From: Christensenella sp.
GTDB lineage: Bacteria; Bacillota; Clostridia; Christensenellales; UBA3700
NCBI GenBank assembly: GCA_022784465.1
Contig: JALFUR010000010.1
Location: 256,856-320,855 of the forward strand
DNA length: 64,000 nucleotides
Direction: 5' to 3'
The notes beneath the pieces were generated by a model. That model was not told where the DNA came from. It saw only the letters and a program-made list of their open reading frames with translations, and did no database searches. Positions 12,001-28,402 of this stretch are shown one piece after another (positions within the stretch are counted from its first letter, which is position 1; the number at the start of each line of letters is the position of its first letter). The position numbers and the translations under genes were made by a program.

Positions 12001-15000
12001 GCTCCATCTCCACAATCCGCAATACCTATTCCTGCAATACCAGAAATGTATACATTGTCTGAGCCATTACCAAGTCCTGTATTTGTACCCATAATACCAG
12101 CGATACCATCAAAGATCTGCTTCTGATAATATGAACCATCTTCTTTTTGAGGAGTATTACTTGTGTACCAAATCAAGTTTCCATATCTATGAACATAAGT
12201 ATATGAATTTGTATCTGAAGCAGGTTGACTTCCGTCTGAGCCATATAAAATTGTGTTATATCTTCCTGCTATATATCCCCAACTTCCCCAGTTGGCACCA
12301 ATTGAAGCAAAGTTGAACGAAGTGCAATCTAATAATTTACCAACTCCAATTGTATCTCCGTTGTGTTTCATTGGATTAGTAGCATCTACTGTTCCTTCTT
12401 CACATCCAACACCAATTAAACCTCCAACATATAATCCGTTATCTGAACCTTTGCTAGATTTAGCATTTAATAATGCCCCTGCCACATTTGTAAATCCACA
12501 ATTACTTATATATCCAGAACTGGTTACTCCTGCTATTCCTCCAACGGCATATGAGTTCATTGCGATGTCATCTGCGCCTGCAATTAATGTGCCCTCATTT
12601 CTAAATGAACAATTTTGTATTACTCCAGAGATATCATCTCCATTGCCCTTATTGTATCCAGCAATTCCGCCTAAATAAGAATTTTTTGAACCAGTTGAAG
12701 CAAATACGCCTTGATTTGTTATAGAGGTATCATGTATTTTTCCTAGATTATATCCAGTAACGCCTCCCATATACTGGGTAGTTGCCCCTGTTTGGAAAGC
12801 ATACTTTTCTATTGTGGTATTAGAGTTCTTTGCTAAAATAACCATGCTCTTAATGGTGTCTTTTTTCGTAATTGAATAATAATTTTTATCCGCAGGAATA
12901 TCCAAGCCAGACTCTCCTTTGTATGGAGAGGTATATGAAGTATTTTGAATTATACCATTTGTATCATTAATTCCTGTATATAATCCAAAATATGCACTTA
13001 ATGCACTTCCTGTCACCAAAGTTGAAGGATATTGCGATTCTTTCTTATATGAAGAAGTTTGTATCCATGAGTTTGTAACAGTATCTGGTGTATTTACATA
13101 AATATATTGCATTGTACCATCATTGGACCCGGCGATTAATCCATAGGATAATTTATAACTTGGATCTCCGTATATTTTTTGCTCTCTTCCTTGATATACT
13201 TCTACTGGCTTAATGGTACCATCTTTCGTTCCAATAATTCCTTTATTTATTCCTACAACATTTCCTATTGAAGTATTCGCATATGGATATCCATTTACAT
13301 ATTGTTTTATATCTTGATATTGTCCTAATTCCGTAGTTGATCTAGGTTGAACATCCATATAAGTGTATAAGAAAATATTTTGCAATGTTCCATAGTTTAC
13401 AGCAAGCAACATTCCAACGCCATAATATTTCTCTCCGTTTACGCTCGCATATCCTCTAAATTCATCATTTGTAAACTTTAAATAATCCGATGTATACCCT
13501 ACAGTTGTTTCTGAATATCCTACATTTTCAATGCCAGCATTGCTTGAATGTTTGTCTGAAGTGTTACCTAGATAGTAATTATAAATACCATGTCCGTTAC
13601 CATCAATTGTCTTATACGAAGGAAGAATTCTACTTCCGTTATATGTTGTATTAAAGGTAATATTTGCAGCCAACTTATATGTTGTTGTTTGAGAATATGT
13701 AGTTCTGTCATAATATCTCGAATAAATAAAGTCGAAAATTGCTACGTTCGATTTAGAACCAGGATCAATAACATTAATGCTCATCGAGTTGAATCTGTCT
13801 TTTGAAGTATTATAATCATTACCTCCCGTTGTAGAGGATACAGGAATAATTAGAATTCTAACAAAAGCAATACCTTCTCTTGGAACCGCGTCTTCACCAT
13901 AGTCATAACCCGTGATACCTTGTACTCCGTCTTGATCTGTAGATGTGTTTCTAGATGCGCCAGTCGTAATATAATTTATTGAGCTTGCATCGCTAGAACT
14001 ACCTAATGAGTAATTGTTTATGTATAAAGAATCTACACCGCTTTTCCATGCATATTTTATTACATATGAAGTTGCACTTGTTACAGAATCGCTTGATGAA
14101 ACATATTGAATGTCTTGAATATATAAATAATTGCTAAATGTAGATGCAACTCTTGCTCCGCTTGTATTGAAAAATGATACTTTTGTAAAATATTTAGAAT
14201 AATCTGATGCAAACGAATCTATTCTAGCATCTTTATTTACGTAGATAAAATCATAATATCTTGGATTTGCAGCTGTAGGATTAGCAACTTTAGTCGCATC
14301 TAATATTGAATCATATAAAGTTTTTGTATCATCAAGCGTAATTAACAATTTAGCTTGTGTTACCATATATGCAACATTATTTAAAGAAGATGCTGTCAAA
14401 TCATTTGTTTCTGCAATACTAAACGAAATAGTATAAGATCCAGAGTTTAAAATTGTTGATACACTAGAAGAATTTAGTTGATTATCTAAAAATGTATTTG
14501 TCATTGCAACATTAACATAATGAATTGCAGAATCGCTTGTTATTATTTTTACTCTTGAACCTTCCATAGCAACAGATCTTATACCTGTTACCAATAGAGG
14601 GTCAATAAATGGATTGATTCTTGTATATGGATTAATTTCAACTCCGTTATATACTTTTTGATTATCTCCTGTCCAGCTTAATTCAATTGTTGTTTGATTG
14701 ATGGTATAAGTATATGTATATATCGCTTTTTTTACATTATTGTTTACAGGATACGTGTATGTAATAATATATGTTCCAGCATCTTGTATTGGTTCTCCTG
14801 CATCTTTTATTGAAGATAAATCAGAGTTTACTGCTGTATATGTCATTGTACAAATTGGCGTATCTAGAGATATTTTTTCAGAAGATTGGGCTTTACCATA
14901 ATAAGAAGACCATGAGAATGTATTAAACAAACTCCATAAAACCGCTTCATCGTCAATTATCTGAGCATATTGATTGTCTGGAACGTTTTGCGCCATAAAA

Positions 15001-17703: not shown

Positions 17704-18321
17704 TTAAGAGGCAGAATTAATAATTTCCGTTCCTATTGTAAATGAGATTTGAGTTGAACTTAAAGTCTCAGGAAATAACTCCTCAGATAGATCAAATTTA
17801 ACAAAGCACAAAATATAACCAGTGCCATTTGTAATGTTATTTATAGAAATATAGTTTGTTCCGCTAGAAGGCTTTATCCATGTTGATGGCTCGCCTTTTG
17901 CGTCTGTTGAAAAATTAAAAGAGCTATCCTTTATAATAAAGCTATAGCTTAAATTTTCATTTAAATAACTTACATAATTAGAATCTAAATTATAAGCGTT
18001 TCTTTTATAGTTAACGCCTGTAATATAAAATTTAACATTAATAGGTGTTGAAGAGGTAGATATATATTTTAGGCAATACACTCCATATATTCCGTTGTCT
18101 CCAGTAACCGCCTCATAATTATCTACATTTGGATTAGTAGCAGCAGGAGAAAATCCTGTGGATTTATCTCCTATTACTAAAGATAAAACCGAGCCGGTTT
18201 CACTGGTAATTTTAAAAGTAAAATCTACTTGTCCTGCGGAATAAAAGGCAAATGTTGTTCCGCTTAAAGCGGCTAGAACAACAATTAGCATTAATATAAT
18301 TACTATTCCGCTTTTTTTCAC
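17704..18321 (-). CDS. Small secreted protein with SipW/TasA-class signal peptide (205 aa); minor fibre subunit candidate
   Basis: N-terminus MKKSGIVIILMLIVVLAALSGTTFAFYSAGQ (K-rich n-region, hydrophobic core, GTxFAFYS motif). GTG start overlaps the upstream TGA stop (GTGA). AAGGAG lies 8 nt upstream. Confidence 0.6.
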   Translation of the reverse strand: MKKSGIVIILMLIVVLAALSGTTFAFYSAGQVDFTFKITSETGSVLSLVIGDKSTGFSPAATNPNVDNYEAVTGDNGIYGVYCLKYISTSSTPINVKFYITGVNYKRNAYNLDSNYVSYLNENLSYSFIIKDSSFNFSTDAKGEPSTWIKPSSGTNYISINNITNGTGYILCFVKFDLSEELFPETLSSTQISFTIGTEIINSAS

Positions 18322-18971
18322 TCTTCGCTCCTTGTTATTGTTGCATTTACATAATTGCCCGACTCTTTTTTCTTTATTGTCATTGTTCCAATAAGTGCAT
18401 TTGTCGTAACTTTTGGAACAGTCTCACTATCTATATAAACAGTTTCAAGTTGCGGACATCCCGAAAAAGATGTTCCTAAAATTTCACTTACGCTACTTGG
18501 TATTACTATACTTTTTATCAAAGAAAACGACTCCATATATTCTGCAGATTTAATATTTATTTTTGTAACAGACAAATTCTTTGTCGTTCCAGATATGTAC
18601 CAATTAATACTTGCAGGTACTACTAAATCCTCGTATTCACCCATAGAGCCTGTATACCCAATTAAAGATACGCTAGTAAAACTTGTACTCTCCACCGTAG
18701 GAACTACTTCATCGCTATATAATTGAAACCCAATAAAAGCATTATTTTCGCTTGAATACTTCAAATAGTAATTTCCCTCGCTATAGTTAGCTTGGAAAAT
18801 CATGTACTTATATGTTGTATTGCTAACTGTAATTACAGGTGAATCCTGCCCTTCAATATTTATCGAAGGATTGCCACCCCAGAACGCAACGGCAGTAGAG
18901 GTAACTGCAATTACTATAATTGCAATTGTAAGAGAATAAACTATTAACAATTTAGTGCTAGTTTTTTTCAT
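18318..18971 (-). CDS. Small secreted protein (217 aa) with SipW-class signal peptide and a short BspA-type leucine-rich-repeat segment
   Basis: N-terminus MKKTSTKLLIVYSLTIAIIVIAVTSTAVAFWGGN. The C-terminal half has IKSIVIPSSVSEILGTSFSGCPQLETVYI, matching the pattern IPxSVxxIGxxAFxxCxxLxxIxI. Start overlaps the upstream stop by 1 nt (TAATG). Confidence 0.6.
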   Translation of the reverse strand: MKKTSTKLLIVYSLTIAIIVIAVTSTAVAFWGGNPSINIEGQDSPVITVSNTTYKYMIFQANYSEGNYYLKYSSENNAFIGFQLYSDEVVPTVESTSFTSVSLIGYTGSMGEYEDLVVPASINWYISGTTKNLSVTKINIKSAEYMESFSLIKSIVIPSSVSEILGTSFSGCPQLETVYIDSETVPKVTTNALIGTMTIKKKESGNYVNATITRSEE

Positions 18972-19801
18972 TATTTAATCTCCGCTGCTAAATAAAACAT
19001 ATATGTTGATCCCTGGTAATAAGGACTGCTAAACGCAAAAGGCTTGTTAAATATTTTGTCGGTAGAGTTATATCCGCAAAAGCCAATATATATTCCTACA
19101 TAGTTTTGCGTTCCAGCATTGGATACTTCTTTTTCATATTCAAGTCCTATGCCGCTTATTTTTGCGCTTGTGTATCCTGTGCCATTTCTTACGACTTTAC
19201 TTTCTGCACTTTTCCAATAATCAAACTCGAAACAATTAGTAACATAGGCTTCACCGATTACTATATGTGTTACTTTGTTATTTGTATTATCCCAAACAAC
19301 ATAGAAACTACTTGCACCTTCACCTGTAGGATACGAATCTACGCTATTTGAATAAAACCTTGTATCTTCTCCAACTGCTGTAGTATTCATAATTGCCGCA
19401 ATATCGGCAATTGCCTCAGATAAAGAGCGCGAATAAGAAGCCCCAAGTTCAATTATTACTTTGCTTAACTTTATATAAAATGTTACATTCGTTGGCGCTT
19501 GCGCCCTATATGGAAAATTTATGTCTATTGAATATAGATAATCTGCCTCACTCTCACCATAAGGCTCTCCTGTAGATTTAAAACCTTCCTGTCCTCTATA
19601 TGGATCGACACTAAAATCTTTACTTAAATCATAATCTGTTTTAGATTCTGTTCCTGTTCCTAAAACAACTACGGTTGGAGTTCCTGATTCCATATCAAGA
19701 ATCAAGGACGCCGTCATGGAATCAGAGAACCACGCATACGTACTTAATAATGCTATAAATAGCACTATTATTACTAATATGGGTGCCACTCTCTTTTCCA
19801 T
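18971..19801 (-). CDS. Secreted protein (276 aa) with SipW/TasA-class signal peptide; fibre subunit candidate
   Basis: N-terminus MEKRVAPILVIIVLFIALLSTYAWFSDSMTAS (YAWFSD matches the SipW-cognate signal-peptide class). Tightly packed in the operon, 9 nt after the upstream gene. Confidence 0.6.
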   Translation of the reverse strand: MEKRVAPILVIIVLFIALLSTYAWFSDSMTASLILDMESGTPTVVVLGTGTESKTDYDLSKDFSVDPYRGQEGFKSTGEPYGESEADYLYSIDINFPYRAQAPTNVTFYIKLSKVIIELGASYSRSLSEAIADIAAIMNTTAVGEDTRFYSNSVDSYPTGEGASSFYVVWDNTNNKVTHIVIGEAYVTNCFEFDYWKSAESKVVRNGTGYTSAKISGIGLEYEKEVSNAGTQNYVGIYIGFCGYNSTDKIFNKPFAFSSPYYQGSTYMFYLAAEIK

Positions 19802-19810
19802 TAAGAATAA

Positions 19811-20626
19811 TCATTCTCCTTTTTCTTCGCTGTTTGCAGGAGCACTAGGAGCATCTTGAATACTATCCTCTTTTTTTGCATTTAACATTGCAAGATACTC
19901 TTCAATTGCCTTTTTCTTTATTTCTTCCTCGTCTAATGGCTTATCTACTCCGGCCAATTCTTTTAATATTGATGCTTTTACATCTTCTAAGTCTTGCTTG
20001 CTCTTTTCTTCTATTCTCTTAATCCTTGCATTTACAATTGCACGTATAAACACAATCACATTATAAATAAGTAGGGCCGCAAGCGGAATAACAACTGCCC
20101 ACAAAAAGTTAGTTGCATCTTGGAACCATCTAATGAATTTACCAACTTTTGGTATTACCTTTACAACTTTTCCTTGAATAGTTCCCTCAAGATATCTGAT
20201 GTCCTTACCTTCGGCTTCTGCATCTCCCTTTGTATAATAATATTGAACATCTAAATCTTCCCTATATTCAACTTTTGTAATTCTGTGGGTAATCCACGCG
20301 CTTTCACCATTTACAATTCCCCTATAGATAACTACATCTCCAACTTCTAAGTTGCGTTTTTCCTCGTCTGTTAAACTTTTAATAATTACTAAATCGTCAA
20401 TTGCAAAAGATTTTATCTTGTACCTGTCTTCGTTTCCATCCATGGAAGCAGATAAAACAACTGTTAAATTATATCCATCCCCCAATTCTTTATTAGTTAC
20501 TTTAGATCCGGTAATAACAGCAATAGATAGCACAATCGAAGCAATGATAATCATTATTTCAATAACCATAACCACTATATTAACGATTTTTTTAGTCTTA
20601 CTTTCCGGCTTATTATTCTTTGCCAT
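19811..20626 (-). CDS. sipW: Signal peptidase I, SipW (archaeal/ER) type, paralog 2, with C-terminal TM segment and charged cytoplasmic tail
   Basis: N-terminal TM, catalytic-Ser box VVLSASMDG, GDVVIY, His box ITHRITKV, second TM (FLWAVVIPLAALLIYNVIVFI), K/E-rich tail. AAGGAGA RBS. Confidence 0.7.
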   Translation of the reverse strand: MAKNNKPESKTKKIVNIVVMVIEIMIIIASIVLSIAVITGSKVTNKELGDGYNLTVVLSASMDGNEDRYKIKSFAIDDLVIIKSLTDEEKRNLEVGDVVIYRGIVNGESAWITHRITKVEYREDLDVQYYYTKGDAEAEGKDIRYLEGTIQGKVVKVIPKVGKFIRWFQDATNFLWAVVIPLAALLIYNVIVFIRAIVNARIKRIEEKSKQDLEDVKASILKELAGVDKPLDEEEIKKKAIEEYLAMLNAKKEDSIQDAPSAPANSEEKGE

Positions 20627-20639
20627 TTTTTACTTCTCC

Positions 20640-21521
20640 TTAACCGTAATATTCTACATCGTCATCAAATGCTTCAACGTCAAACCAGAAATTAATTGTA
20701 CACTTTCCGCCTAAAATATCATTTACGCATTGTTGGTCTGTTCCTTCAAACCAAATAACTACTGTAAATTTCTTTTGTTGAGCATGAGATAGTTCTCTAC
20801 CAGTTTCTTTCATTACATAGAAACCGTCATATTCGTCATCTTCTGTATATACTTCTCCTAAGAAAGGAGTAGTTGTTGGGACTTGTAGCAATGGATACGA
20901 CACATTAAGCTCACTTAGAGTCAATCCAACTTGAGATTCTTTACAATCGTCATACGCTACATATTCTGCCGTTCCATCGGCTTTAGCTTGTGCATAAACC
21001 TTAGTATTGCTTGGCCTATTTTCCACATCATCCTCGTCTTCAATAATCATTACTCTAATTGCTGACGCGGTATTTAATGTGTTTTTAACAATTTCAACAC
21101 CCATTGTATATGTACATTTTCTTGTAGGGCTATTGTTAACTAAATAGAAACTATATGCAATATATGAAGCGCCGTGGTGTCCACCTTCGTAGCCAAATAT
21201 ATCTGCTTCCATATTTAGCCATGTGTAGGTATATGCGCCCAAGTCTTCTGGTCCTTCCATATTAATGTTTGTCGTCCTATCCTCAGGTTTTGAATCCTTA
21301 ATTTTAGATAAAGAAAGACCCTCGTTTATATTACTTTCTTTTATAGAAATTTGCATAGAGTTAGCATTAATAAAAGTCAAAACACCATATGTTCCACCTG
21401 TTAAAAGTAGCGTAACCAATAAAACAACAATAATAACCTTTGTTGCAGTACGTGTTTTACTTGCAGCCTTGATCATTTTGTTCTTAATAATAGCGTCTTG
21501 TTCTTTCTTTGTTAATGCCAT
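20640..21521 (-). CDS. TasA/camelysin-like secreted or membrane-anchored protein (293 aa) with an N-terminal cytoplasmic extension
   Basis: About 25-aa basic N-region, then TM VIIVVLLVTLLLTGGTYGVLTF. The C-terminal FTVVIWFEGTDQQCVNDILGGKCTINFWF resembles the TasA/camelysin C-terminal F.F.DNG.DQN.FQGD...F pattern (recalled from memory). Confidence 0.5.
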   Translation of the reverse strand: MALTKKEQDAIIKNKMIKAASKTRTATKVIIVVLLVTLLLTGGTYGVLTFINANSMQISIKESNINEGLSLSKIKDSKPEDRTTNINMEGPEDLGAYTYTWLNMEADIFGYEGGHHGASYIAYSFYLVNNSPTRKCTYTMGVEIVKNTLNTASAIRVMIIEDEDDVENRPSNTKVYAQAKADGTAEYVAYDDCKESQVGLTLSELNVSYPLLQVPTTTPFLGEVYTEDDEYDGFYVMKETGRELSHAQQKKFTVVIWFEGTDQQCVNDILGGKCTINFWFDVEAFDDDVEYYG

Positions 21522-21527
21522 TTTTCC

Positions 21528-22244
21528 CTATTTTTGACTATTTATATATTCTTCTATAGCCTTTTTCTTTATTTGCTCTTCTAATTCTTTTTGCTTATTT
21601 TGTTGCTCTAAAAGTTGTTTTAGTTCCTCTTCTTGTTCTTTCTTTAGTTTCTCCTCTCTTGCTTTTGTATTTTCTTTAACAAAAATAACAATTTGCCAAA
21701 TCATAATAGCAAATAGCGGTATAACTATTACTGTAACGAACCCGTACCACTTAGACAAGAATCTTGCAAGAGTAGAAATAAAACTGCTTGTTCCCACAAT
21801 TTTACCTTGTATATTATCTACAGGAATAGGAACCCTATCGTCAGGAGATCCTAGTTTATCTCCTCTTGTTTTTACATACCATGTATCTGTTTTTTCATCA
21901 TAGTAAGGGTCTTCTACTATTCTATGAGTTACAGTATATCCCTCTAAACGGTTGTCTTTATCAAAACCATATGGTGCTATAAAAGCTATGACATCTCCTG
22001 CTTTATACTCTTGTGGCGTTGGGTCTTTATCCGCCTTACAAATAACCACATCGCCAACGTTGTAAGTTCCCGTCATAGAATCTGTTACAACCCTATATGT
22101 AGAATATCCAAATAAATTTGGAGTTTGTCCACATATTTTTTGTGCAAGTATTGTTAGTAAACATCCTACCAAAAATAGAATGATTACCCACTGCAAAACC
22201 TTTAGAGCAACATATATATGTTTTTTTACTGTTTTACTGCTCAT
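21528..22244 (-). CDS. sipW: Signal peptidase I, SipW (archaeal/ER) type, paralog 1, with C-terminal TM segment and coiled-coil tail
   Basis: N-terminal TM, Ser box RVVTDSMTGTYNVGDVVICK, His box VTHRIVED, second TM (FVTVIVIPLFAIMIWQIVIFV), K/E-rich tail. Start overlaps the upstream gene by 11 nt. Confidence 0.75.
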   Translation of the reverse strand: MSSKTVKKHIYVALKVLQWVIILFLVGCLLTILAQKICGQTPNLFGYSTYRVVTDSMTGTYNVGDVVICKADKDPTPQEYKAGDVIAFIAPYGFDKDNRLEGYTVTHRIVEDPYYDEKTDTWYVKTRGDKLGSPDDRVPIPVDNIQGKIVGTSSFISTLARFLSKWYGFVTVIVIPLFAIMIWQIVIFVKENTKAREEKLKKEQEEELKQLLEQQNKQKELEEQIKKKAIEEYINSQK

Positions 22245-23838
22245 TATCTACGTTTTCAATATTTGCATATACAACAGCCTCATCCATTTCTTCGCCTGCT
22301 GTATGCTTTGCAAGTTGTGCATCTAATTGTTCTAAGCGCTTTGTTTCTCTCTCTTCCGCTTTTTTCGCTGCAATTTGTTCTCTTTCTAAGGTCTTTTCTC
22401 TCTTTTGTCTTGCTCTTAAAATCATAGACTTTTCTTTTTCTATTTGAGCAATCAACCTTTCTGCTAATTGTTCTTTGCTATATGACTTATCCAAAACGGC
22501 TGTTGTCTTTGTTGCCGCATTTTCCATCTTAACTTTCTCTAAGACTCTATCAATAGCTTTATTAATACGAGACATTTCAGCTTTTGTTAAAGTTAACTCT
22601 TCCGCAGTTCTCTGGAAAACATCTCTTGTTTCTTCTATAAGTCCTATCTCTTCTGGAATCTCAAACTCTTCGTCCTCGTCTTCCTCTTCTTCCTCTATAT
22701 CTTCTTGATCTTCCTCGTCCTCTTCCTCTTCTTCTTCGTCCTTCTTTTCTTGAATCTCCTCAGGAATGGTGTCTTGATCTATAGCTTCTTCTATTTCTTT
22801 TTCTTCTTCAGATTTTGTCTCTTCCTCTTTTTCTTCTTCTTTTTTCTCTTCTTCTTGTTTTTCCTCTTCAACTTTATCTTTTTCTTCCATATTTGATTCG
22901 TTAAAGAAAGCAGTATCTTCCGTTTTACCTTCAATCAAACCTTGCATTAACATAGAGCCAAGACATATCATGTCTTGAACACCAGTCATAAGTTCTGCAT
23001 CCATGTTGTAAGGTTTAACATCGTTTTCAACTGAGAATCCCATCTTTGTATACGATTCAACAAACTGCCACAAAACAAGCGCTTTTTTAAAGTCTGGGTT
23101 TTTCAAAATAACGTTAGTTCTAGTTATTGGTGGTCTAATTGGTGCAGATCCTACCATTTGCTTTGCAAATGGAGAAGACAAGAAATCTAAGATAATTCTC
23201 TGTATTTTTGCAATTCTTTCAACTACAGATAAATCTTCCTTTTGCATTGATTTAACTTCATCTATTGGTAAAGCACCAATTAAATCTAATTTATAAAATA
23301 TTCTTGTTTTTCCTGTAAATATAGAAGTATCTACATTAAGCTCCATAACGTTATCGTTAATATATGCAGCTTTAATAGCGTCCATACGACGAGTTACGAA
23401 ATTGTTAAGATTCTTTAAAAGTGTATAGATAAATCTGTTTTCATAAACCTCGAAACTTTCCTCTTTTGTAACATTTAGAATCTTATTTGGAGTAACCATT
23501 CCGTCTTCGTCAACACTAGAGATAAAGTTTGTATGTTGAGCAAGGTGTTTAACAGATTCAGTAGATATAGCTCTTGCTAAAGAGATATCTACGATATCTT
23601 CTTCTTGTACAATGAACTTTCTTGGATTTCTAACGATATTATCTAAAGAAACAATACTATCTTCTATTACCTCTACCCATTCAAGGTCAAAAGTTTTTGT
23701 TCTTGTTTTTTTACTTAATTTAATTAAAGGTCTTGCAACTCTCAATTTCTTTTGAAAGTCTGCATAGAATTGCTCAGATTTAAGCATTTTGTTGATATTC
23801 TCAACATATTGATTATACTTTGCTCTATCCTCGTTCAT
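22234..23838 (-). CDS. McrC N-terminal (DUF2357)-like protein lacking a recognisable nuclease domain; long acidic low-complexity tract plus K/E coiled-coil C-terminus (534 aa)
   Basis: IVRNPRKFIVQEEDIV...ESFEVYENRFIYTLLKNLNNFV resembles the DUF2357/McrC-N pattern (..RxPxxxL...DTxENRFxK). I found no PD-(D/E)xK-like motif. There is a ~90-aa E/D/K tract and then heptad-like K/E/R repeats. It starts 22 nt after the McrB-like gene. Confidence 0.5.
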   Translation of the reverse strand: MNEDRAKYNQYVENINKMLKSEQFYADFQKKLRVARPLIKLSKKTRTKTFDLEWVEVIEDSIVSLDNIVRNPRKFIVQEEDIVDISLARAISTESVKHLAQHTNFISSVDEDGMVTPNKILNVTKEESFEVYENRFIYTLLKNLNNFVTRRMDAIKAAYINDNVMELNVDTSIFTGKTRIFYKLDLIGALPIDEVKSMQKEDLSVVERIAKIQRIILDFLSSPFAKQMVGSAPIRPPITRTNVILKNPDFKKALVLWQFVESYTKMGFSVENDVKPYNMDAELMTGVQDMICLGSMLMQGLIEGKTEDTAFFNESNMEEKDKVEEEKQEEEKKEEEKEEETKSEEEKEIEEAIDQDTIPEEIQEKKDEEEEEEDEEDQEDIEEEEEDEDEEFEIPEEIGLIEETRDVFQRTAEELTLTKAEMSRINKAIDRVLEKVKMENAATKTTAVLDKSYSKEQLAERLIAQIEKEKSMILRARQKREKTLEREQIAAKKAEERETKRLEQLDAQLAKHTAGEEMDEAVVYANIENVDNEQ

Positions 23839-23860
23839 CTATTTCCCTCGTGCACTTATA

Positions 23861-25405
23861 TTAGAACAACTTCTTCAATCTCATTAAGTATTCCTTACAT
23901 TCTGACATATTCTCTTCACCAAAGTGATCAGATAAATATTGTATATATGCGTCAATTTCATCACGAATGAAACCTAAGTTCAATGATTCAAACTTACGCA
24001 AAATCTTATTACACAAAACGTAATCTAGTCCATCAATCTCTGTACCGCCACATGCAACATATACAGGAACGAATTCACGCAACTGCTTAACAATACGGTT
24101 ACCAAATGCCAAACGGAAGTGTTCAATAACATAATCATCCATTTCTTCGAATTTTTTTAAATTCTCATCAGATACTTTATGCTCTTCTTGTGCTTTTGCA
24201 AATAATGCTTCAAGTGTCTTATAGTTAACAGGGAAATTCTCTGTTAATGGTGCATCAAAAGCTGCTGCTTTTGAGTTAATGTTTATAGGCATACCTCTAT
24301 CGTAAACCTTATCTGAAATAGCGAATGTAGAGTCGTCGTTATTAGCTGTTCCTACATACCACATGTTTTCTGGTAATCTAAAACGTCCTTTTTCTATATG
24401 AATCGGATCGGATGGCCAACCAGATGGTACTAAGTCAATAATCCATTGTGCTCTAGATGGCATTTCCAAAATAGACAACATTTCAGCGAAATAATACTCA
24501 ACACGCGCGATATTCATTTCGTCTAGAACTGTTATATATACATCGTTTGTATAAGTAGCTTCATACATTTTCTTTAAAACTTCGGTTTCGTTGAAACGCT
24601 TAGTGAATTCGTTGAAATAACCGAAAATTTCGGTTCTATCACGCCATGACGGTTGAACAGATGTGATTGTTGTTGGATTATTAAAAAAGTGTCCTAAACA
24701 TTCTGGCAAAGATGTTTTACCTGTACCTGAAATACCTTGAAGAATAATAAGTCTACTTGTTGCCATACTAGCTATAAATAAACGAATAATCTTAATCTCA
24801 TAATACAACTTACGCCAAGGTCTTTCTGGATTATTTGCAGCATAGAATCTAATTCTATCGCAAAGCTGCTCTAGAGTGAAATTATCGTCATATTCTCTAA
24901 CAGGAGCATTTGGACCATTGTATATTTCGTCAACTTCTGTTAATTTATAGAAACGACTTTCTTTATGAACAACACCCTCTTCTCCTTCTTTCTTTTCAGC
25001 ATTTTCATCCGCAGTATCTTCAAGTAACCCTTCATTTCCATATCCAGTTACTTTCATACCTAAAATCTTATCTTTTTCTTGATTAAGTTTAATAATTTGT
25101 CTTTTTAAATTGTGAATTTCATCAACAAGATCCTGGTTAACAACCCTCGATCTTAATTTTCCAGCAAATCTAACAAGCCCCCATACAACAAGCCAGATAA
25201 TACCAACTAATACGATAACAACAGCAAGAACAATTAAAATAGCTACCGCCCAATTTCCTCCAGTCCATGTGCTACTATATTTTACAAAAGTAGCATAATA
25301 ATTTGGGAAATTGAACATGTTATATATTCCTCTAAAAATCCCTAAAAAAATCTCGCTAATTCCGCCCCATAGGACGCCTAGAAAATCCTTAATAAAATCT
25401 GTCAT
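23861..25405 (-). CDS. Membrane-anchored McrB-family AAA+ NTPase (GTPase-type motifs), 514 aa
   Basis: N-terminal hydrophobic segments (WAVAILIVLAVVIVLVGIIWLVVWGLV). Walker A LQGISGTGKTS. VQPSWRDRTEIFGY (cf. McrB FHxSYSYEDF). VLDEMNIARVEYYFAEMLSILE (cf. DEINRANxxxxFGELxxLLE). LPENMWYVGTANNDDSTFAISDKVYDRG (cf. GTMNTADRS..D.ALRRRF, contains NxxD). Confidence 0.7.
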   Translation of the reverse strand: MTDFIKDFLGVLWGGISEIFLGIFRGIYNMFNFPNYYATFVKYSSTWTGGNWAVAILIVLAVVIVLVGIIWLVVWGLVRFAGKLRSRVVNQDLVDEIHNLKRQIIKLNQEKDKILGMKVTGYGNEGLLEDTADENAEKKEGEEGVVHKESRFYKLTEVDEIYNGPNAPVREYDDNFTLEQLCDRIRFYAANNPERPWRKLYYEIKIIRLFIASMATSRLIILQGISGTGKTSLPECLGHFFNNPTTITSVQPSWRDRTEIFGYFNEFTKRFNETEVLKKMYEATYTNDVYITVLDEMNIARVEYYFAEMLSILEMPSRAQWIIDLVPSGWPSDPIHIEKGRFRLPENMWYVGTANNDDSTFAISDKVYDRGMPININSKAAAFDAPLTENFPVNYKTLEALFAKAQEEHKVSDENLKKFEEMDDYVIEHFRLAFGNRIVKQLREFVPVYVACGGTEIDGLDYVLCNKILRKFESLNLGFIRDEIDAYIQYLSDHFGEENMSECKEYLMRLKKLF

Positions 25406-25471
25406 CGTATATATCTCTCTCTTTATAATTGTTTCATATACGCGGGCTCGTGCACCCGAATAAATGATATG

Positions 25472-25501
25472 AACTAGCCCTAAGAATGCTTAGGACTAGT
25501 T
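25472..25501 (-). terminator. Hairpin downstream of the major-subunit gene (attenuator/terminator)
   Basis: 13-bp stem with one mismatch (AACTAGCCCTAAG / CTTAGGACTAGTT) and a 4-nt loop, 22 nt after the stop at 25523. Followed by a moderately U-rich stretch and a GC-rich mini-hairpin (25442..25458). Confidence 0.55.
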
Positions 25502-25522: not shown

Positions 25523-26449
25523 TTAAGCATTTTTTGATGTGAATGCGTATCTAATTGTGAATGTTGCATTGGCAGCAGAAGCATCGGCTGTCCATCCATC
25601 AATCCATGTATAAATTGCTAGGTTAACATAATCATTTCTAGCAATATTACCAAAATCTACTTCATATGTAACATATGTATTGTTTGTAACTAATCCCATA
25701 TTAGTTTCGTCTTGATTAGGAGTTTCCCCTACAGTAGTAAAGTAAGTTGTCAAGTTTGGGTTAGTATAATTAAATTCACTAGCATTTGTATCTGTTGCTG
25801 TTTTCAATGTAGAACCGCTTGGAGATACATATCCAGAACTTGCACTAGAAGCAATCTCTGCGCCTGATTCTGCACCAGATGTTATACCTTCTACCCAATC
25901 ATATCCATTTGTTGCATATAATCCCTTATCATTGCAAATTGCAAACTTTGTTGCAGCTGCTGCGTAAAATGAAGAGGTTGATGCTTTGCTACCATCCGCT
26001 AAAACAAGAACAACTTTCAAAACTAGATGTTTTTGAGCATCTTTTGCAGTATTAACAACCCTAATAAAAGCTGGGTCCTTTGCAACGGCATTACCGTTTT
26101 GCGTTACCGTTCCACCGCTCTTTGTTGCTGTATAGAAAGTTGCTCCGTCTGCATAAGTTGCTTGCAAAGCTTTTGAAATTTTTGTATTAATAGCCGCAAT
26201 AGGTGAATACAATCCAGCAAACGCCTTATCTGAAATATCGATTTGGTCTGAAGATGCTCCTGCAAACGAAACGGTTGAACCAGTTTTATTACCTAAAACT
26301 AGAGCCCAATCTGCTGATGCTTGTGTAGTCATATTAACATTAGCTACAGCAATTGATGAAGCAGAGAACCATGCATATGTAGCTGTAGACAATGCTACTA
26401 CTACAACCACTATCATTGCGATAGTTGTAATTAATGTGCTTTTTTTCAT
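25523..26449 (-). CDS. TasA/camelysin-like candidate major fibre subunit with SipW-class signal peptide (309 aa from the corrected start)
   Basis: Corrected start MKKSTLITTIAMIVVVVVALSTATYAWFSASS at 26449, preceded by AGGAGA 8 nt upstream. The track ORF start at 26572 adds 41 basic residues with no RBS. C-terminal YVNLAIYTWIDGWTADASAANATFTIRYAF parallels the 293-aa paralog. It has its own promoter and terminator. Confidence 0.6.
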   Translation of the reverse strand: MKKSTLITTIAMIVVVVVALSTATYAWFSASSIAVANVNMTTQASADWALVLGNKTGSTVSFAGASSDQIDISDKAFAGLYSPIAAINTKISKALQATYADGATFYTATKSGGTVTQNGNAVAKDPAFIRVVNTAKDAQKHLVLKVVLVLADGSKASTSSFYAAAATKFAICNDKGLYATNGYDWVEGITSGAESGAEIASSASSGYVSPSGSTLKTATDTNASEFNYTNPNLTTYFTTVGETPNQDETNMGLVTNNTYVTYEVDFGNIARNDYVNLAIYTWIDGWTADASAANATFTIRYAFTSKNA

Positions 26450-26512
26450 AATTTTTCGTCTCCTTTTATGAATTTTGTATTTTTTTATGTGCTTGAAATA
26501 AAAATACATGCT

Positions 26513-26541
26513 TTTATAAACTTTTAGATGCCTTTTGTAAA
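26513..26541 (-). promoter_or_regulatory. Sigma-A-like promoter for the major-subunit gene
   Basis: Minus strand: TTTACA, 17-nt spacer, TATAAA, about 65 nt upstream of the ATG at 26449. A 7-bp inverted repeat TTTGTAA/TTACAAA overlaps the -35. Confidence 0.5.
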
Positions 26542-26603
26542 CAAACCACCGTCTTACAAATTTGTTTAACATTGCATGCAGTTATATTTCTTTATAGCCT
26601 TAT

Positions 26604-27734
26604 TTATTTTTTCTTTTTTGTTGGACGAGAAACGTTAAGTTTAATAACATTTGCTCCTCTAACAATTTCTTTATCTTTATCTGTAGATTTTTTCAAACCT
26701 GCAAATTCTTCATTTGATGTTGCAACCTGACCAGCTTTTAGTTTTAATGCTTTTTTCTTTTCTTCTTCAATTTTTTGTTGTCTTTCTTTTTCTAGTCTTT
26801 GCGCTTCTTTTTCCTTTTCTAAAGCTTCTTGTTCAAGTCTCAATTGTTTTTCACGTTCTCTTTCTGCAACTTTTTTAGCAGCTGCTGCTGCAAGTCTTGC
26901 TTTTATTTCGTCCCTTTGAGAAGTTACTTCAATTACAACATTTTCTTCTTTTTCTGTTTTCTTATCCTCTACTGATGGAGCATTTTCTGCTTGAACAATA
27001 TATGTTTTTTTGTCTTCTACAGCTTCATCTTTTGATGCTGTAACAAAAGCGTCAACTTTTCTTTTTGGTCTAGAAAATGCAGATCCTGAGAATATTGTTA
27101 TATTATTATCAATAAACATATCAATATTGTTTTTATCTTTAACATTTCCAACAACCATAGTTATATTGTTTGCTTTTGTCAATTGAGACAAGATAGATAA
27201 CAATCCTTTATTGCTTGAATTGTAATATCTATAATCAAGCAAAAAATAACTTGCAGGATATTTTGTCAATACATCAACCGGAGCCTTATCTACACCTTCA
27301 ATCATAATTGTTGCACCAATGCTTGTTAAAAACTTTAACCCAGCAAGAGCTGCTTTATCTCCAAATTTTTCTAGTTGATAAATATCAAAGCACAAAATTA
27401 AATTTGGTTGCAAAATTGATCCCAATCTATGAACGTTGCCTTCTGCTAGTAGTTTAGCTGAAGCCTTGTAGATAAAAATCTGATCGAAATATTTCCTATA
27501 GTCTTTTTCAAAGTTCTTTAACGCTAAAAAATTCAACGTTACAATTCTATTTGAAGTTTCTGCTGTTGGTCCATATTGCCATGGATACATAGAACCAAGA
27601 ACATCATCTTCTAACACCTGCCATACTTCCAAAAATTGTAATTGAGATTCTTCGTTGTAGTATGGGTTGTAATAGTAGGTAATAGGATTTTTTACAGCAC
27701 TTTTAGATTTTGCTTTTGCACTTTTTGTCGACAT
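26604..27734 (-). CDS. Degenerate (probably catalytically inactive) EAL-domain-like protein with C-terminal K/E-rich coiled coil (376 aa)
   Basis: The order and spacing of EAL blocks is kept but catalytic residues are replaced. LEVWQ..(EALxRW); PWQYGPTAETSNRIVTLNFLAL (P.eFi.lAEe.gli..l). LKFLTSIGATIMIEGVDKAPVDVLTKYPASYFLLDYRYY (L+..G..iaiDDFGtGyssl..L..lp.d.lKiD). ITMVVGNVKDKNN...IFSGSAFSRP (viAEGVE...QGy.fs.P). Confidence 0.45.
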   Translation of the reverse strand: MSTKSAKAKSKSAVKNPITYYYNPYYNEESQLQFLEVWQVLEDDVLGSMYPWQYGPTAETSNRIVTLNFLALKNFEKDYRKYFDQIFIYKASAKLLAEGNVHRLGSILQPNLILCFDIYQLEKFGDKAALAGLKFLTSIGATIMIEGVDKAPVDVLTKYPASYFLLDYRYYNSSNKGLLSILSQLTKANNITMVVGNVKDKNNIDMFIDNNITIFSGSAFSRPKRKVDAFVTASKDEAVEDKKTYIVQAENAPSVEDKKTEKEENVVIEVTSQRDEIKARLAAAAAKKVAEREREKQLRLEQEALEKEKEAQRLEKERQQKIEEEKKKALKLKAGQVATSNEEFAGLKKSTDKDKEIVRGANVIKLNVSRPTKKKK

Positions 27735-28402
27735 ATAAACCCTCCTAACCTATTATTACTACATTTTGATGTATTTTCATTTTAGCGATTTTATTAAATG
27801 CTGTCAATCTTCTTATTATTATAATAAGTCTATAAAACGCATATTTTATTAAAATTTTAAGTTTTTTTTAAGACCATTTTTTGGTTTTAAATAGCAAAAA
27901 AAACAATACATATTATGCAATTTTACAATTTTGAAAGAGATTAAAAAATTATCAAAAATTTCGTTTGTAAAATTTTTTTGACATATTTTTTACATAAAAT
28001 TCTTTACCATATTGTCCATAATAACTTGTGTTTTGTGAATAAAATTTTGCAATTTTTTTCAACAATTTTGCATAAAACAACAAAATATTGTGTTAGAAAA
28101 ATTCAAGACCACAATTTGTTGGGATTATTGTTCTTGTAGTCTTAAGAAAATTTTTTAAATGCTTCACAATTTTTAATTAATGTAAAATTTTTTGGAATTT
28201 TTAATAATTTTGTTAAAAGATATCATGCATAAATTGTCCTTTTTTCTACAAAAAGCCTGGGGTTAAGAAAATTTTCTTTTAAAATAACCTTAAATTCTAT
28301 AATTATCTTTTTTTATATATATTTTTTATTTATTGATTTTTATTTATCCGTATTATATAATTTATTTACAAAAAAATATAAATTATAACTAGGAGGTTAT
28401 TT

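Follow-up and report, generated by a model that had tools for sequence, protein, structure and literature searches.

A CoCoPALM-type pair of a membrane-anchored McrB-like NTPase and a DUF2357 partner, conserved alongside SipW-type signal peptidases in gut Firmicutes

A type of system termed CoCoPALM has been named by Bell et al. (eLife 2024; PMC11090510), in three sentences and without analysis as far as the parts of that article bearing on it go. In the outline given there, NxD GTPases resembling McrB carry an FtsB-like transmembrane helix and coiled coil as a fused N-terminal domain, which the authors term FtsB-homologous; their partners are McrC homologues with coiled coils, and signal peptidases are associated with them. 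The same parts of the article equate DUF2357 with the McrC N-domain. Described here is a gene pair from the window, meaning the whole 64,000-nucleotide stretch of Christensenella sp. DNA that was analysed. Judged by its sequence and by the article's brief wording, the pair is a CoCoPALM-type module, already named and never studied experimentally. An earlier note on this DNA had taken the arrangement to be undescribed, a view that the article overturns.

The first gene of the pair (23861..25405, minus strand) encodes a membrane-anchored McrB-like NTPase of the NxD clade, 514 aa in length. Both this open reading frame and that of the partner were found on the minus strand at the positions given in the earlier note, and the peptide motifs quoted there all occur in the translations. 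A single strong transmembrane segment stands out near the N-terminus, with a Kyte-Doolittle peak of 3.56 at residues 56-74 and K/R residues after it, and the helix, delimited by hydropathy and homologues, covers approximately residues 52-80 (25166..25252, minus strand). All 81 of the 81 full-length homologues place it at the same position, with a higher K/R count after the helix than before it. Since the K/R residues come after the helix, the AAA+ domain is predicted to lie on the cytoplasmic side. A short heptad segment detected by heptad scan (residues 87-114; 25064..25147, minus strand) scores above 99.9% of shuffles and is also kept in homologue A1, so that both the anchor and the short coiled coil proposed earlier are borne out. 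The DNA-binding N-terminus usual for such NTPases has been replaced by the transmembrane helix and short coiled coil.

The AAA+ core (approximately residues 199-400; 24206..24811, minus strand) can be aligned to that of E. coli McrB over some 175-200 residues and carries the Walker A motif GISGTGKT, the Walker B motif VLDEMN and Arg370. E. coli McrB is the best solved relative (phmmer against the PDB, E=5e-8, residues 207-404; hhalign probability 96.6%, E=6.7e-10), and the NCBIfam McrB model matches at E=1e-7, all of which agrees with the McrB-type assignment made from the sequence earlier; Pfam AAA_5 scores 21.1 bits, slightly below its cutoff of 22. The signature motif is N355-N-D357, an NxD motif, followed by D358 (24335..24343, minus strand). 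The NxxD read previously is literally possible (N355-N-D-D358), but N355 and D357 are unchanging across homologues while position 358 may be D, E or Q, so the invariant motif is NxD; the Walker motifs and R370 are likewise retained and invariant. The pattern GTxNxD[DEQ]ST is present in 135 of the 150 top cluster representatives, with the remaining 15 mostly lacking a detected pattern and many of these sequences being incomplete. The protein search returned more than 8000 matches at E<=0.001, with an identity of 60% or more in the 120 clusters that score best, and the wider NxD[DEQ] family divides into transmembrane-bearing and soluble long classes, as in the relevant parts of Bell et al. (PMC11090510).

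The partner (22234..23838, minus strand; 534 aa) belongs to the DUF2357, or McrC N-domain, family. The Pfam match (residues 40-162; 23353..23721, minus strand; E=6e-10) exceeds the gathering score, in keeping with the McrC-N/DUF2357-like start noted earlier, and of 10 selected homologues that were scanned, 7 pass the Pfam cutoff for DUF2357, which is also the precomputed annotation on all 120 homologues listed, from a search with at least 1002 matches at E<=0.001. With match numbers of this order for both proteins, the pair is no product of chance. Direct similarity to E. coli McrC was undetected (hhalign probability 0.06, no Foldseek match), and the label "McrC-like" therefore rests on Pfam DUF2357 and gene adjacency. 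The most conserved block, NPRKF...HLAQHTN...TPNKILN...YENRF, falls inside the DUF2357 match and is left unstructured in an AF2 model that is itself of moderate quality (pLDDT 69 overall, below 50 at residues 75-124), which is as expected for a segment that may fold upon binding. A second conserved block (residues 205-265, RPPIxRTNVILKNPxF..LW; 23044..23226, minus strand) shows no conserved D...ExK triad in the homologue alignment. It is followed by an acidic low-complexity tract recognised by composition (residues 306-400, 58% Asp+Glu; 22639..22923, minus strand), variable in length and sometimes missing among homologues, which span 361 to 1245 aa, and by a charged K/E/R helical tail, also defined by composition (residues 401-534; 22237..22638, minus strand). 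A heptad scan of this tail stayed below threshold, and one long homologue matches coiled-coil Pfam families; the tail could be either a coiled coil or a single alpha-helix. Searches of the partner found no nuclease family, PDB sequence match or fold match, and a conserved acidic/lysine triad is absent among its homologues, which upholds the reported lack of a PD-(D/E)xK signature. In this protein, the nuclease has been replaced by the acidic tract and charged helical tail.

A spacer of 22 nt holding a Shine-Dalgarno-like GAGGGA separates the NTPase stop from the partner ATG, and the partner stop and the start of the next gene overlap by 11 nt with the common sequence ATGAGCAGTAA, both distances being exactly those previously given. 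The overlapping gene (21528..22244, minus strand) encodes SipW-type signal peptidase 1 (SipW1), 238 aa, with two transmembrane segments, a C-terminal cytoplasmic K/E tail and a TIGR02228 score of 61.3 bits against a cutoff of 51.85. After a secreted protein paralogue of 293 aa with an N-terminal transmembrane/signal segment (20640..21521, minus strand), homologues of which were found in about 60 loci, comes signal peptidase 2 (19811..20626, minus strand; 271 aa), matching the SipW NCBIfam model at E=1.7e-13 and TIGR02228 at 39.5 bits, under the cutoff; its K/E tail has the motif KKKAIEEY in common with that of SipW1. Three more small secreted proteins of 276, 217 and 205 aa with SipW-type signal peptides (17704..19801, minus strand) are candidate minor subunits, the 276-aa protein scoring 17.9 bits against a cutoff of 19 with the SipW-dependent signal peptide model TIGR04088, and their gene order is kept in loci L006 and L013.

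On the other side of the pair, the candidate major subunit (25523..26449, minus strand) is a secreted beta-sandwich protein of 308 aa, counted from Met42 of the ORF 25523..26572, with a SipW-type signal peptide. Its homologues are about 308 aa long, with a nearly invariant signal peptide and mature parts that are 25-40% identical, and its AF2 model is all-beta (pLDDT 85.6), with no match in Pfam, PDB sequences or PDB folds. The signal peptides of the substrates end in a T-x-A-x-F-[SN]-like motif. Comparison of the secreted proteins with pilin and TasA families by sequence and fold gave no known match, the genes provide no evidence of a fibre, and the "TasA-like fibre" earlier seen in these neighbours is not supported. 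A 13-bp stem-loop between this gene and that of the NTPase (25472..25501, minus strand) is a candidate attenuator; L006 has another, different stem-loop at the corresponding place. Further upstream, a 376-aa protein with a K/E-rich C-terminal tail (26604..27734, minus strand) matches Pfam EAL at E=5e-9, and a profile from operon-linked homologues matches EAL-domain structures (E=3e-34). Of the catalytic positions, the window protein has lost N, ExxE, DD, K, EGVE and Q; it is a candidate c-di-GMP sensor or scaffold and not an active phosphodiesterase. Ahead of the gene that opens the cluster lies a promoter-like site, TTGACA-17-TAAAAT (27779..27807, minus strand), an 11/12 match to the consensus in a region where the total of such sites is not above shuffle expectation. 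At the opposite end, a giant surface protein of more than 5800 aa with an N-terminal transmembrane/signal segment (3..17444, minus strand) runs past the window edge; it shows no more than a weak YDG match in Pfam, is a candidate adhesin encoded directly downstream, and from its position may be part of the system. Besides the pair, the operon has genes for two signal peptidases of the SipW type, for five secreted proteins, beta-sandwich or small, that bear SipW-type signal peptides, for the catalytically dead EAL protein and, if position is a guide, for the giant protein. The flanking genes encode LeuRS, SerRS, Spo0A and glycolytic enzymes, a core-chromosome context and not a defence island.

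This cluster recurs, conserved, in hundreds of gut Firmicutes. Relatives of the pair were found in at least 594 species, and in the 80 species-level genomes chosen from these for a synteny survey the partner comes after the NTPase, within 400 bp downstream in 68 of the 76 loci with sequence there and farther downstream in the other 8. Of 46 well-flanked loci, 45 have a SipW-type peptidase gene on the same strand no more than 5 kb away and 44 have secreted paralogues, so the linkage to sipW and to proteins with SipW-type signal peptides that had been claimed is tight and conserved; in L052 (Bacilli), also well flanked, the pair has no SipW nearby. Of the 51 loci with 6 kb or more of upstream sequence, 31 have an EAL homologue ahead of the NTPase gene. 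The gene order with SipW and substrates spans Christensenellales, Oscillospiraceae, Lachnospiraceae and Bacilli, and the NTPase is 50-90% identical across lineages whose secreted proteins share only 25-40%. Two Ruminococcus genomes (L056, L076) encode in-frame fusions of the partner with SipW. Clusters in L022, L025 and L032 end with large proteins of 1212-1833 aa, and weak BspA/LRR_5-type similarity was seen solely in smaller neighbours. The earlier note had staked its reading on three points, and on each the result was favourable: no nuclease domain appeared in the partner, sipW synteny was present, and the NTPase did not fall outside McrB/AAA_5.

The best explanation, and one we consider probable, is that the pair forms an NTPase complex at the cytoplasmic face which, coupled to SipW, gates or powers the processing and assembly of secreted subunits. 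The NTPase ring would be held to the membrane by its transmembrane helices, and the DUF2357 segment of the partner would bind the ring and stimulate NTP hydrolysis, by analogy with the action of McrC on McrB. A physical link is suggested by the in-frame fusions and the 11-nt overlap in the window, and the ring may be tied to SipW through the tail of the partner and through the unusual K/E tails that the SipW paralogues have in the cytoplasm. Nucleotide-driven conformational work could then gate or power SipW processing and, in an ordered way, the release of secreted subunits or their assembly into a surface structure, with the NTPase either performing mechanical work or acting as a switch, and the degenerate EAL protein may supply c-di-GMP-dependent control. 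As far as is known, TasA-type fibres assemble without a cytoplasmic NTPase, and the target of such a motor is therefore without precedent.

It is unlikely, though worth weighing, that the pair instead works for the giant adhesin, or for some other large surface protein, as a membrane-tethered AAA+ device, unfoldase- or holdase-like, aiding its export, anchoring or release, with the small SipW substrates as accessory wall or anchor proteins and not a polymeric fibre. The gene that adjoins the cluster downstream on the same strand, coding for more than 5800 aa, would fit such a role, as would the large proteins ending the cluster in L022, L025 and L032 and the lack of a pilin signature in the small secreted proteins. 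However, what stays constant over the 80 loci is SipW with the small secreted paralogues and not a giant protein, and the known fusion joins the partner to SipW and not to an adhesin. Very little probability is given to an envelope-linked anti-phage or abortive-infection module, related to CoCoNuT or McrBC, that resides in the operon by chance, as the earlier note had envisaged. The PADLOC candidate PDC-M26A does match the NTPase (E=8e-36), and its closest soluble relatives in a representative search are CoCoNuT-type long coiled-coil NxD GTPases, in the sense of the parts of Bell et al. treating them (PMC11090510). Yet the PADLOC match is limited to the AAA+ core (profile positions 313-437 of 724), a PADLOC search of the partner gave no match, and no nuclease or other effector was found; the gene order kept across four lineages, the high NTPase identity and the core-chromosome location all count against such hitch-hiking. 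We do not take the pair for a stray defence module. Least credible of all is an FtsB/FtsL-like envelope or division factor unconnected to its neighbours, to which the transmembrane and leucine-zipper architecture, the FtsB-homologous label of Bell et al. (PMC11090510, in the parts concerned) and FtsL or FtsL_2 matches in 3 of 10 homologue N-termini would point, but those matches are all sub-threshold, the conserved neighbours are SipW and secreted proteins and not division genes, and the partner-SipW fusions indicate the peptidase.

Set against known systems, the pair resembles E. coli McrBC (PDB 6hz4, 6ut6) in its AAA+ Walker A/B motifs, sensor Asn, signature Asp and Arg, in the gene order B then C, and in a partner of the DUF2357 family. 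It differs in having a transmembrane helix instead of the DNA-binding N-domain, NxD instead of NxxD, no PD-(D/E)xK nuclease in the partner, and a context of secretion and not restriction. With CoCoNuT (CnuB/CnuC), as presented in the parts of PMC11090510 dealing with it, the pair shares the NxD GTPase clade, coiled-coil extensions and an McrC homologue whose nuclease is often lost or inactivated; CoCoNuT GTPases, however, are soluble proteins that carry long coiled coils and are found together with nucleases and RNA-binding domains, while the window NTPase is membrane-anchored among SipW and secretion genes. The operon EAL profile matches the structures of FimX/LapD-type degenerate EAL c-di-GMP receptors, and the window protein has likewise lost its catalytic residues, but it lacks GGDEF, PilZ or HAMP partners and has a K/E-rich helix as its tail. 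As in the Bacillus subtilis tapA-sipW-tasA operon, a SipW-type (archaeal/ER-type) signal peptidase adjoins secreted substrates; those of the window are not of the Peptidase_M73/TasA family by Pfam, PDB sequence or Foldseek, its SipW paralogues carry additional cytoplasmic K/E tails, and the B. subtilis operon is not known to hold an NTPase, a DUF2357 protein or an EAL protein. The likeness to CoCoPALM extends to an NxD-branch McrB-like GTPase (NxD then D/E) preceded by a transmembrane helix and coiled coil, to an McrC/DUF2357 homologue that is extended by a charged helical region, and to associated signal-peptidase-family genes. No conflict was found with the published description, which in the parts concerned gives no checkable accession numbers. 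Beyond the text of those parts (PMC11090510), the locus adds the degenerate EAL gene, the partner-SipW fusions of its relatives, orphan beta-sandwich substrates with near-invariant signal peptides, and K/E tails on the SipW paralogues.

The McrB-like AAA+ protein (the NTPase) and the DUF2357/McrC-like protein that follows it (the partner) are encoded within a run of co-directional minus-strand genes among the ORFs of the window. The cluster opens with the gene of an EAL-like protein (26604-27734 (-)), which is followed by a secreted-protein gene in the ORF 25523-26572 (-), where homologue lengths place the real start at Met42 (26449), giving a product of 308 aa. Downstream lie the genes for the NTPase (23861-25405 (-), 514 aa), the partner (22234-23838 (-), 534 aa), a SipW-type signal peptidase (SipW1, 21528-22244 (-)), a 293-aa secreted protein (20640-21521 (-)), a second SipW paralogue (SipW2, 19811-20626 (-)) and three small secreted proteins (17704-19801 (-)), followed by a giant ORF, over 5800 codons long, which starts at 17444 and leaves the window. 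Since the genes flanking the cluster encode LeuRS, SerRS, Spo0A, phosphoglycerate kinase and phosphoglycerate mutase, the stretch is regarded as core chromosome of a low-GC Firmicute. The giant ORF (3-17444 (-)) has an N-terminal TM/signal segment (…IACAMVFSFD) and is nearly blank in Pfam, with a weak YDG match only. On the opposite strand, a divergent 784-aa ORF (28403-30757 (+)) adjoins the promoter region of the cluster and has no Pfam match at E<=1e-5.

The junctions around the pair are exactly as the earlier note had described them, with a 22-nt gap between the NTPase and partner genes and an 11-nt overlap between those of the partner and SipW1. A ribosome-binding-like site, GAGGGA, is found inside the 22-nt spacer, and the 11-nt stretch common to the partner stop and the SipW1 start reads ATGAGCAGTAA. 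Between the gene for the 308-aa protein and that of the NTPase there is a stem-loop of 13 bp with a weak T tail (25472-25501 (-)), and another, different stem-loop occupies the equivalent position in L006 (L handles denote the loci compared from other genomes). The stem-loop in the window is a candidate attenuator which would set the ratio of subunit to machinery expression, and its layout is what would be expected if the first secreted protein were the abundant product and the downstream genes were expressed via readthrough. The 9-mer GTGCACGAG is present in two copies in the 64-kb window against 0.07 expected, at 23847-23855 (-), preceding the ATG of the partner by 9 nt, and at 25447-25455 (-), preceding that of the NTPase by 42 nt. 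As a shared signal it was rejected, the recurrence being probably due to chance and not kept even in 90%-identical relatives (L004, L006 and L013).

The NTPase combines a membrane tether with an intact McrB-type catalytic site. A Kyte-Doolittle scan detected one strong TM segment, with a peak of 3.56 at residues 56-74, in a TM helix spanning approximately residues 52-80; this segment is followed by RFAGKLRSR, and the AAA+ domain is therefore placed in the cytoplasm. Residues 87-114 constitute a heptad segment scoring above 99.9% of shuffles in a heptad scan, and no DNA-binding family was matched at the N-terminus, which holds the TM helix and the heptad segment instead. Similarity of the N-termini to FtsB/FtsL has been detected as sub-threshold Pfam matches only (E=0.02-0.09, in 3 of 10 homologues). 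Among solved structures the best match is E. coli McrB, found by phmmer against 6hz4 at E=5e-8 over residues 207-404, and hhalign of a 20-sequence NTPase profile against McrB gave a probability of 96.6% and E=6.7e-10. The NCBIfam McrB model also matches (E=1e-7), and Pfam AAA_5 lies just below its gathering cutoff (21.1 bits vs 22). The membrane anchor, coiled coil and McrB-type core that had been read from the sequence at first sight are thus all borne out.

Within the McrB-like core, the Walker A sequence GISGTGKT, the Walker B sequence VLDEMN and R370 show no variation. When sequences of as little as 34% identity were aligned, conservation was seen for the Walker A residues G224, G227, G229, K230 and T231, for D295 in Walker B, where at least 90% of sequences also have E296, and for R301, E303, Y305, F306, G352, T353, N355, D357, S359, T360 and R370. 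The earlier note had given the signature of this family as NxxD, which requires amendment: N355 and D357 are invariant and position 358 varies between D, E and Q, making the signature N-x-D followed by D/E/Q. The window NTPase reads N-N-D-D and fits both forms. The pattern GTxNxD[DEQ]ST occurs in 135 of the 150 top 50%-identity cluster representatives; most of the remaining 15 returned nothing with the search pattern, many of them being truncated sequences. The representatives form two groups, one TM-bearing with 450-700 aa and the other soluble with 700-870 aa.

The partner is a DUF2357 protein devoid of a recognisable nuclease. Pfam DUF2357 (PF09823) matches its residues 40-162 (E=6e-10, 39.2 bits vs a gathering score of 23.3), is precomputed on all 120 listed partner homologues and scores above the cutoff in 7 of 10 selected partners. 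Comparison of 36-69 partners revealed two conserved blocks, at residues 50-150 (NPRKFI...HLAQHTN...TPNKILN...YENRF) and 205-265 (RPPIxRTNVILKNPxF...LW), and no conserved Asp/Glu/Lys triad (D...ExK). Neither the window partner nor any of 10 selected homologues, covering all sizes, matched a nuclease family, and no PDB sequence or fold match to the partner was obtained, in agreement with the initial claim that no PD-(D/E)xK nuclease is present. An AF2 model of residues 1-330, based on 35 sequences, is of moderate quality (pLDDT 69) and leaves residues 75-124, the most conserved stretch, unstructured. A Foldseek search of this N-domain model, at a pLDDT of only 69, returned neither McrC nor a nuclease from the PDB at E<=0.001, an outcome that is uninformative and does not count as a negative. 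A profile of 36 partner N-domains gave no match to PDB sequences, and hhalign of the partner alignment (A4) against E. coli McrC, a single-sequence template, gave a probability of 0.06. The partner is termed McrC-like because it is a DUF2357 member and holds a conserved position directly after the McrB-like gene. Asp and Glu make up 58% of residues 306-400, an acidic tract which varies or is absent in other partners (whole partners span 361-1245 aa), and the C-terminal tail is a charged K/E/R helical segment. Heptads were supported in the NTPase only, the threshold of this crude scan having not been reached in the partner, SipW or EAL tails, and a long partner homologue in L050 matches coiled-coil Pfam families. 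The tails of the three proteins may be ER/K-type single helices.

Both signal peptidases have two TM segments each. SipW1 passes the archaeal-type signal peptidase model TIGR02228 (61.3 bits vs a cutoff of 51.85), while SipW2 is weaker but clearly related, with 39.5 bits, below that cutoff, and E=1.7e-13 for the SipW model. C-terminal cytoplasmic K/E-rich tails of 45-75 residues are present in SipW1 (21528-21680 (-)) and SipW2 (19811-20010 (-)), with KKKAIEEY common to both; SipW of B. subtilis is not known to carry such a K/E-rich tail.

The N-terminal hydrophobic segments of the secreted proteins end in sequences such as TYAWFSAS, TYAWFSDS and TFAFYSAG, their resemblance to the SipW-type signal motif having been judged by eye. 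With TIGR04088, the model for SipW-dependent signal peptides, the 276-aa protein reached 17.9 bits vs a cutoff of 19 and the other secreted proteins gave no match. The signal peptide MKKSTLITTIAMIVVVVVALSTATYAWFS of the 308-aa protein (25523-26449 (-)) is nearly invariant in 57 homologues (alignment A3), whereas their mature parts are only 25-40% identical, a contrast that the word-index search may inflate. Such near-invariance suggests that the signal peptide may be recognised by more than Sec. An AF2 model of the 308-aa protein is a confident beta-sandwich (pLDDT 85.6), with low confidence at residues 22-34, across the junction between signal peptide and mature chain; despite this overall quality, Foldseek found nothing in the PDB at E<=0.001. 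None of the secreted proteins matched PDB sequences or any Pfam family, that of TasA and camelysin (Peptidase_M73) included. A TasA-like identity of these neighbours is not sustained and, because no PDB fold, PDB sequence or Pfam match was obtained, they are not called TasA-like here, nor is the 308-aa protein, the candidate major subunit, for which the label was dropped. The secreted proteins may form a fibre. Among the small ones, a 217-aa protein (18318-18971 (-)) weakly resembles BspA-type LRR_5 (E=1.7e-4, short of the cutoff). The clusters in L022, L025 and L032 close with proteins of 1212-1833 aa that match the profile of this protein, and smaller neighbours in L001 and L003 have precomputed LRR_5 matches.

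The EAL protein is degenerate. A search with its profile retrieved EAL structures at E=3e-34, among them FimX and LapD, which are c-di-GMP receptors, and the window protein has lost the catalytic Asn, ExxE, DD, Lys, EGVE and Gln, while bearing a K/E-rich tail. The catalytic Asn and Lys are absent in all 25 operon-linked EAL members. The protein may act as a c-di-GMP receptor.

Association of the pair with sipW extends well beyond the window. In a scan of one genome per species, at least 594 genomes encode a relative, and the best 80 of these at least 594 were kept, all of them MAGs labelled Christensenellales, Oscillospiraceae/Acutalibacteraceae/Ruminococcus, Lachnospiraceae or Bacilli/'Tenericutes'. 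Iterative HMMs made from the window proteins were run against all ORFs of the 80 loci, using HMMER's own alignments. The partner is encoded within 400 bp downstream of the NTPase in 68 of the 76 loci with sequence there, and further downstream in the other eight, four of which have a sipW or secreted-protein gene in between and one a split partner ORF; the NTPase-partner spacer has a median of ~37 nt. Where at least 3 kb upstream and at least 5 kb downstream were available (46 loci), a SipW with an intact catalytic region was found within 5 kb on the same strand in 45, and secreted paralogues within 6 kb in 44. The synteny with sipW is thus conserved. Fast-evolving secreted proteins and the dead EAL protein co-occur with it, an EAL-like gene being located upstream in 31 of the 51 loci with at least 6 kb of upstream sequence.

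The linkage sometimes takes the form of a fusion. In two Ruminococcus MAGs (L056:7353-10307 and L076:9828-12824), the reading frame of the partner runs on into a complete SipW, yielding proteins of 984 and 998 aa in which SipW HMM positions 5-214 are matched at E ~1e-55 and Pfam Peptidase_S26 also matches. These fusions are topologically consistent, since the cytoplasmic C-terminus of the partner is joined to the cytoplasmic N-terminus of SipW. As a Rosetta-stone link, they argue for a physical association of partner and peptidase. The sole exception among the well-flanked loci is L052, from a Bacilli MAG, with no SipW nearby. The product of the gene after the partner in this locus (L052:12606-14276) is anchored in the membrane and has a C-terminal beta domain as well as long Asp-rich repeats, which are DxDxDG-like and, by eye, Ca-binding-like or thrombospondin-type-3-like. 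This protein would represent another type of cargo for the motor pair.

It has been considered that the pair might instead be a defence module, given that PADLOC matched the NTPase to component A of PDC-M26. This match is limited to the AAA+ core, covering profile positions 313-437 of 724, and the partner had no PADLOC match; no effector was found, synteny and sequence are too conserved, and the genomic context is one of housekeeping genes, making a defence function unlikely. A role in surface assembly is the preferred reading. The model follows the example of McrBC, in which GTP hydrolysis is stimulated by the N-domain of McrC on its insertion into the McrB hexamer (Niu et al. 2020; Nirwan et al. 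2019, as cited in PMC11090510). On the proposed mechanism, the NTPase would form a ring under the membrane which the partner would activate, and the charged helical tails of the partner, SipW and EAL proteins would tie this ring to the peptidase. Nucleotide turnover would thereby gate or drive substrate processing and assembly, either mechanically or as a switch. We give about even chances to this general mechanism, that of a SipW-coupled processing and assembly NTPase. More specifically, and only tentatively, the cluster could represent an uncharacterised NTP-dependent surface-fibre pathway of monoderm bacteria, conserved in hundreds of gut Firmicutes species, in which an exapted McrB-like ring and a McrC-like adaptor are coupled to SipW and, controlled by a second messenger, gate or drive the processing and polymerisation of subunits.

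McrBC is known from textbooks as a motor of DNA restriction, whereas the two-protein engine in the window has a membrane anchor in place of DNA binding and cleavage, adjoins signal peptidases and secreted surface proteins, and has relatives in at least 594 species, mostly uncultured gut and rumen Firmicutes. If this motor controls or powers surface assembly, it would add an energy-dependent step to a SipW/TasA-type pathway thought to need none, and would provide a means of approaching how abundant gut commensals, Christensenellales and Ruminococcus among them, adhere and form biofilms. Testable hypotheses on the wiring of the system arise from the fusions of partner and SipW, from the dead EAL protein and from signal peptides that hardly vary on substrates that evolve fast; together with the SipW tails and the orphan substrates, the fusions and the degenerate EAL gene are additions of use at the bench.

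When compared to known systems, the pair departs from canonical McrBC type IV restriction at both ends: the McrB N-terminal modified-DNA-binding domain is replaced by a TM helix and heptad segment, and the PD-(D/E)xK nuclease of the McrC C-terminus was not found in the window partner by any of the searches. The cluster resembles the TasA/SipW fibre system in encoding a SipW-type signal peptidase, but differs in that its secreted proteins have no TasA/camelysin family match. The closest description is found in the census of McrBC systems by Bell et al. (eLife 2024; PMC11090510), the relevant passages of which equate DUF2357 with the McrC N-terminal domain and define an NxD branch, where the motif is 'usually followed by a glutamate or a second aspartate'. 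Within this branch, 'another large clade' is described: its GTPase bears a fused FtsB-like domain made of a transmembrane part and a coiled coil, coiled coils are usual in both the McrB and McrC homologues, and proteins of the signal-peptidase family are associated with them in the genome. This clade is named CoCoPALM, its analysis being left to a future paper. Our literature search returned no follow-up CoCoPALM paper and no other paper joining SipW with McrB-like proteins; the class has been named, yet is without an experimental or detailed computational description. The earlier interpretation of a McrBC-derived, membrane-anchored, nuclease-less pair linked to sipW was largely right, and its claim that the arrangement was undescribed gives way to this prior naming. 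The window NTPase matches the FtsB-like TM and coiled-coil arrangement in architecture, with FtsB/FtsL homology at sub-threshold level only, and the partner has a charged helical tail, below the heptad threshold, where a coiled coil is described for the McrC homologue. The NxD followed by a D/E-type residue and the association with a signal peptidase (45 of 46 loci, the overlap in the window and the L056/L076 fusions) are shared with CoCoPALM and, judged from the published description rather than the authors' accession lists, the window pair is very probably a member of this class.
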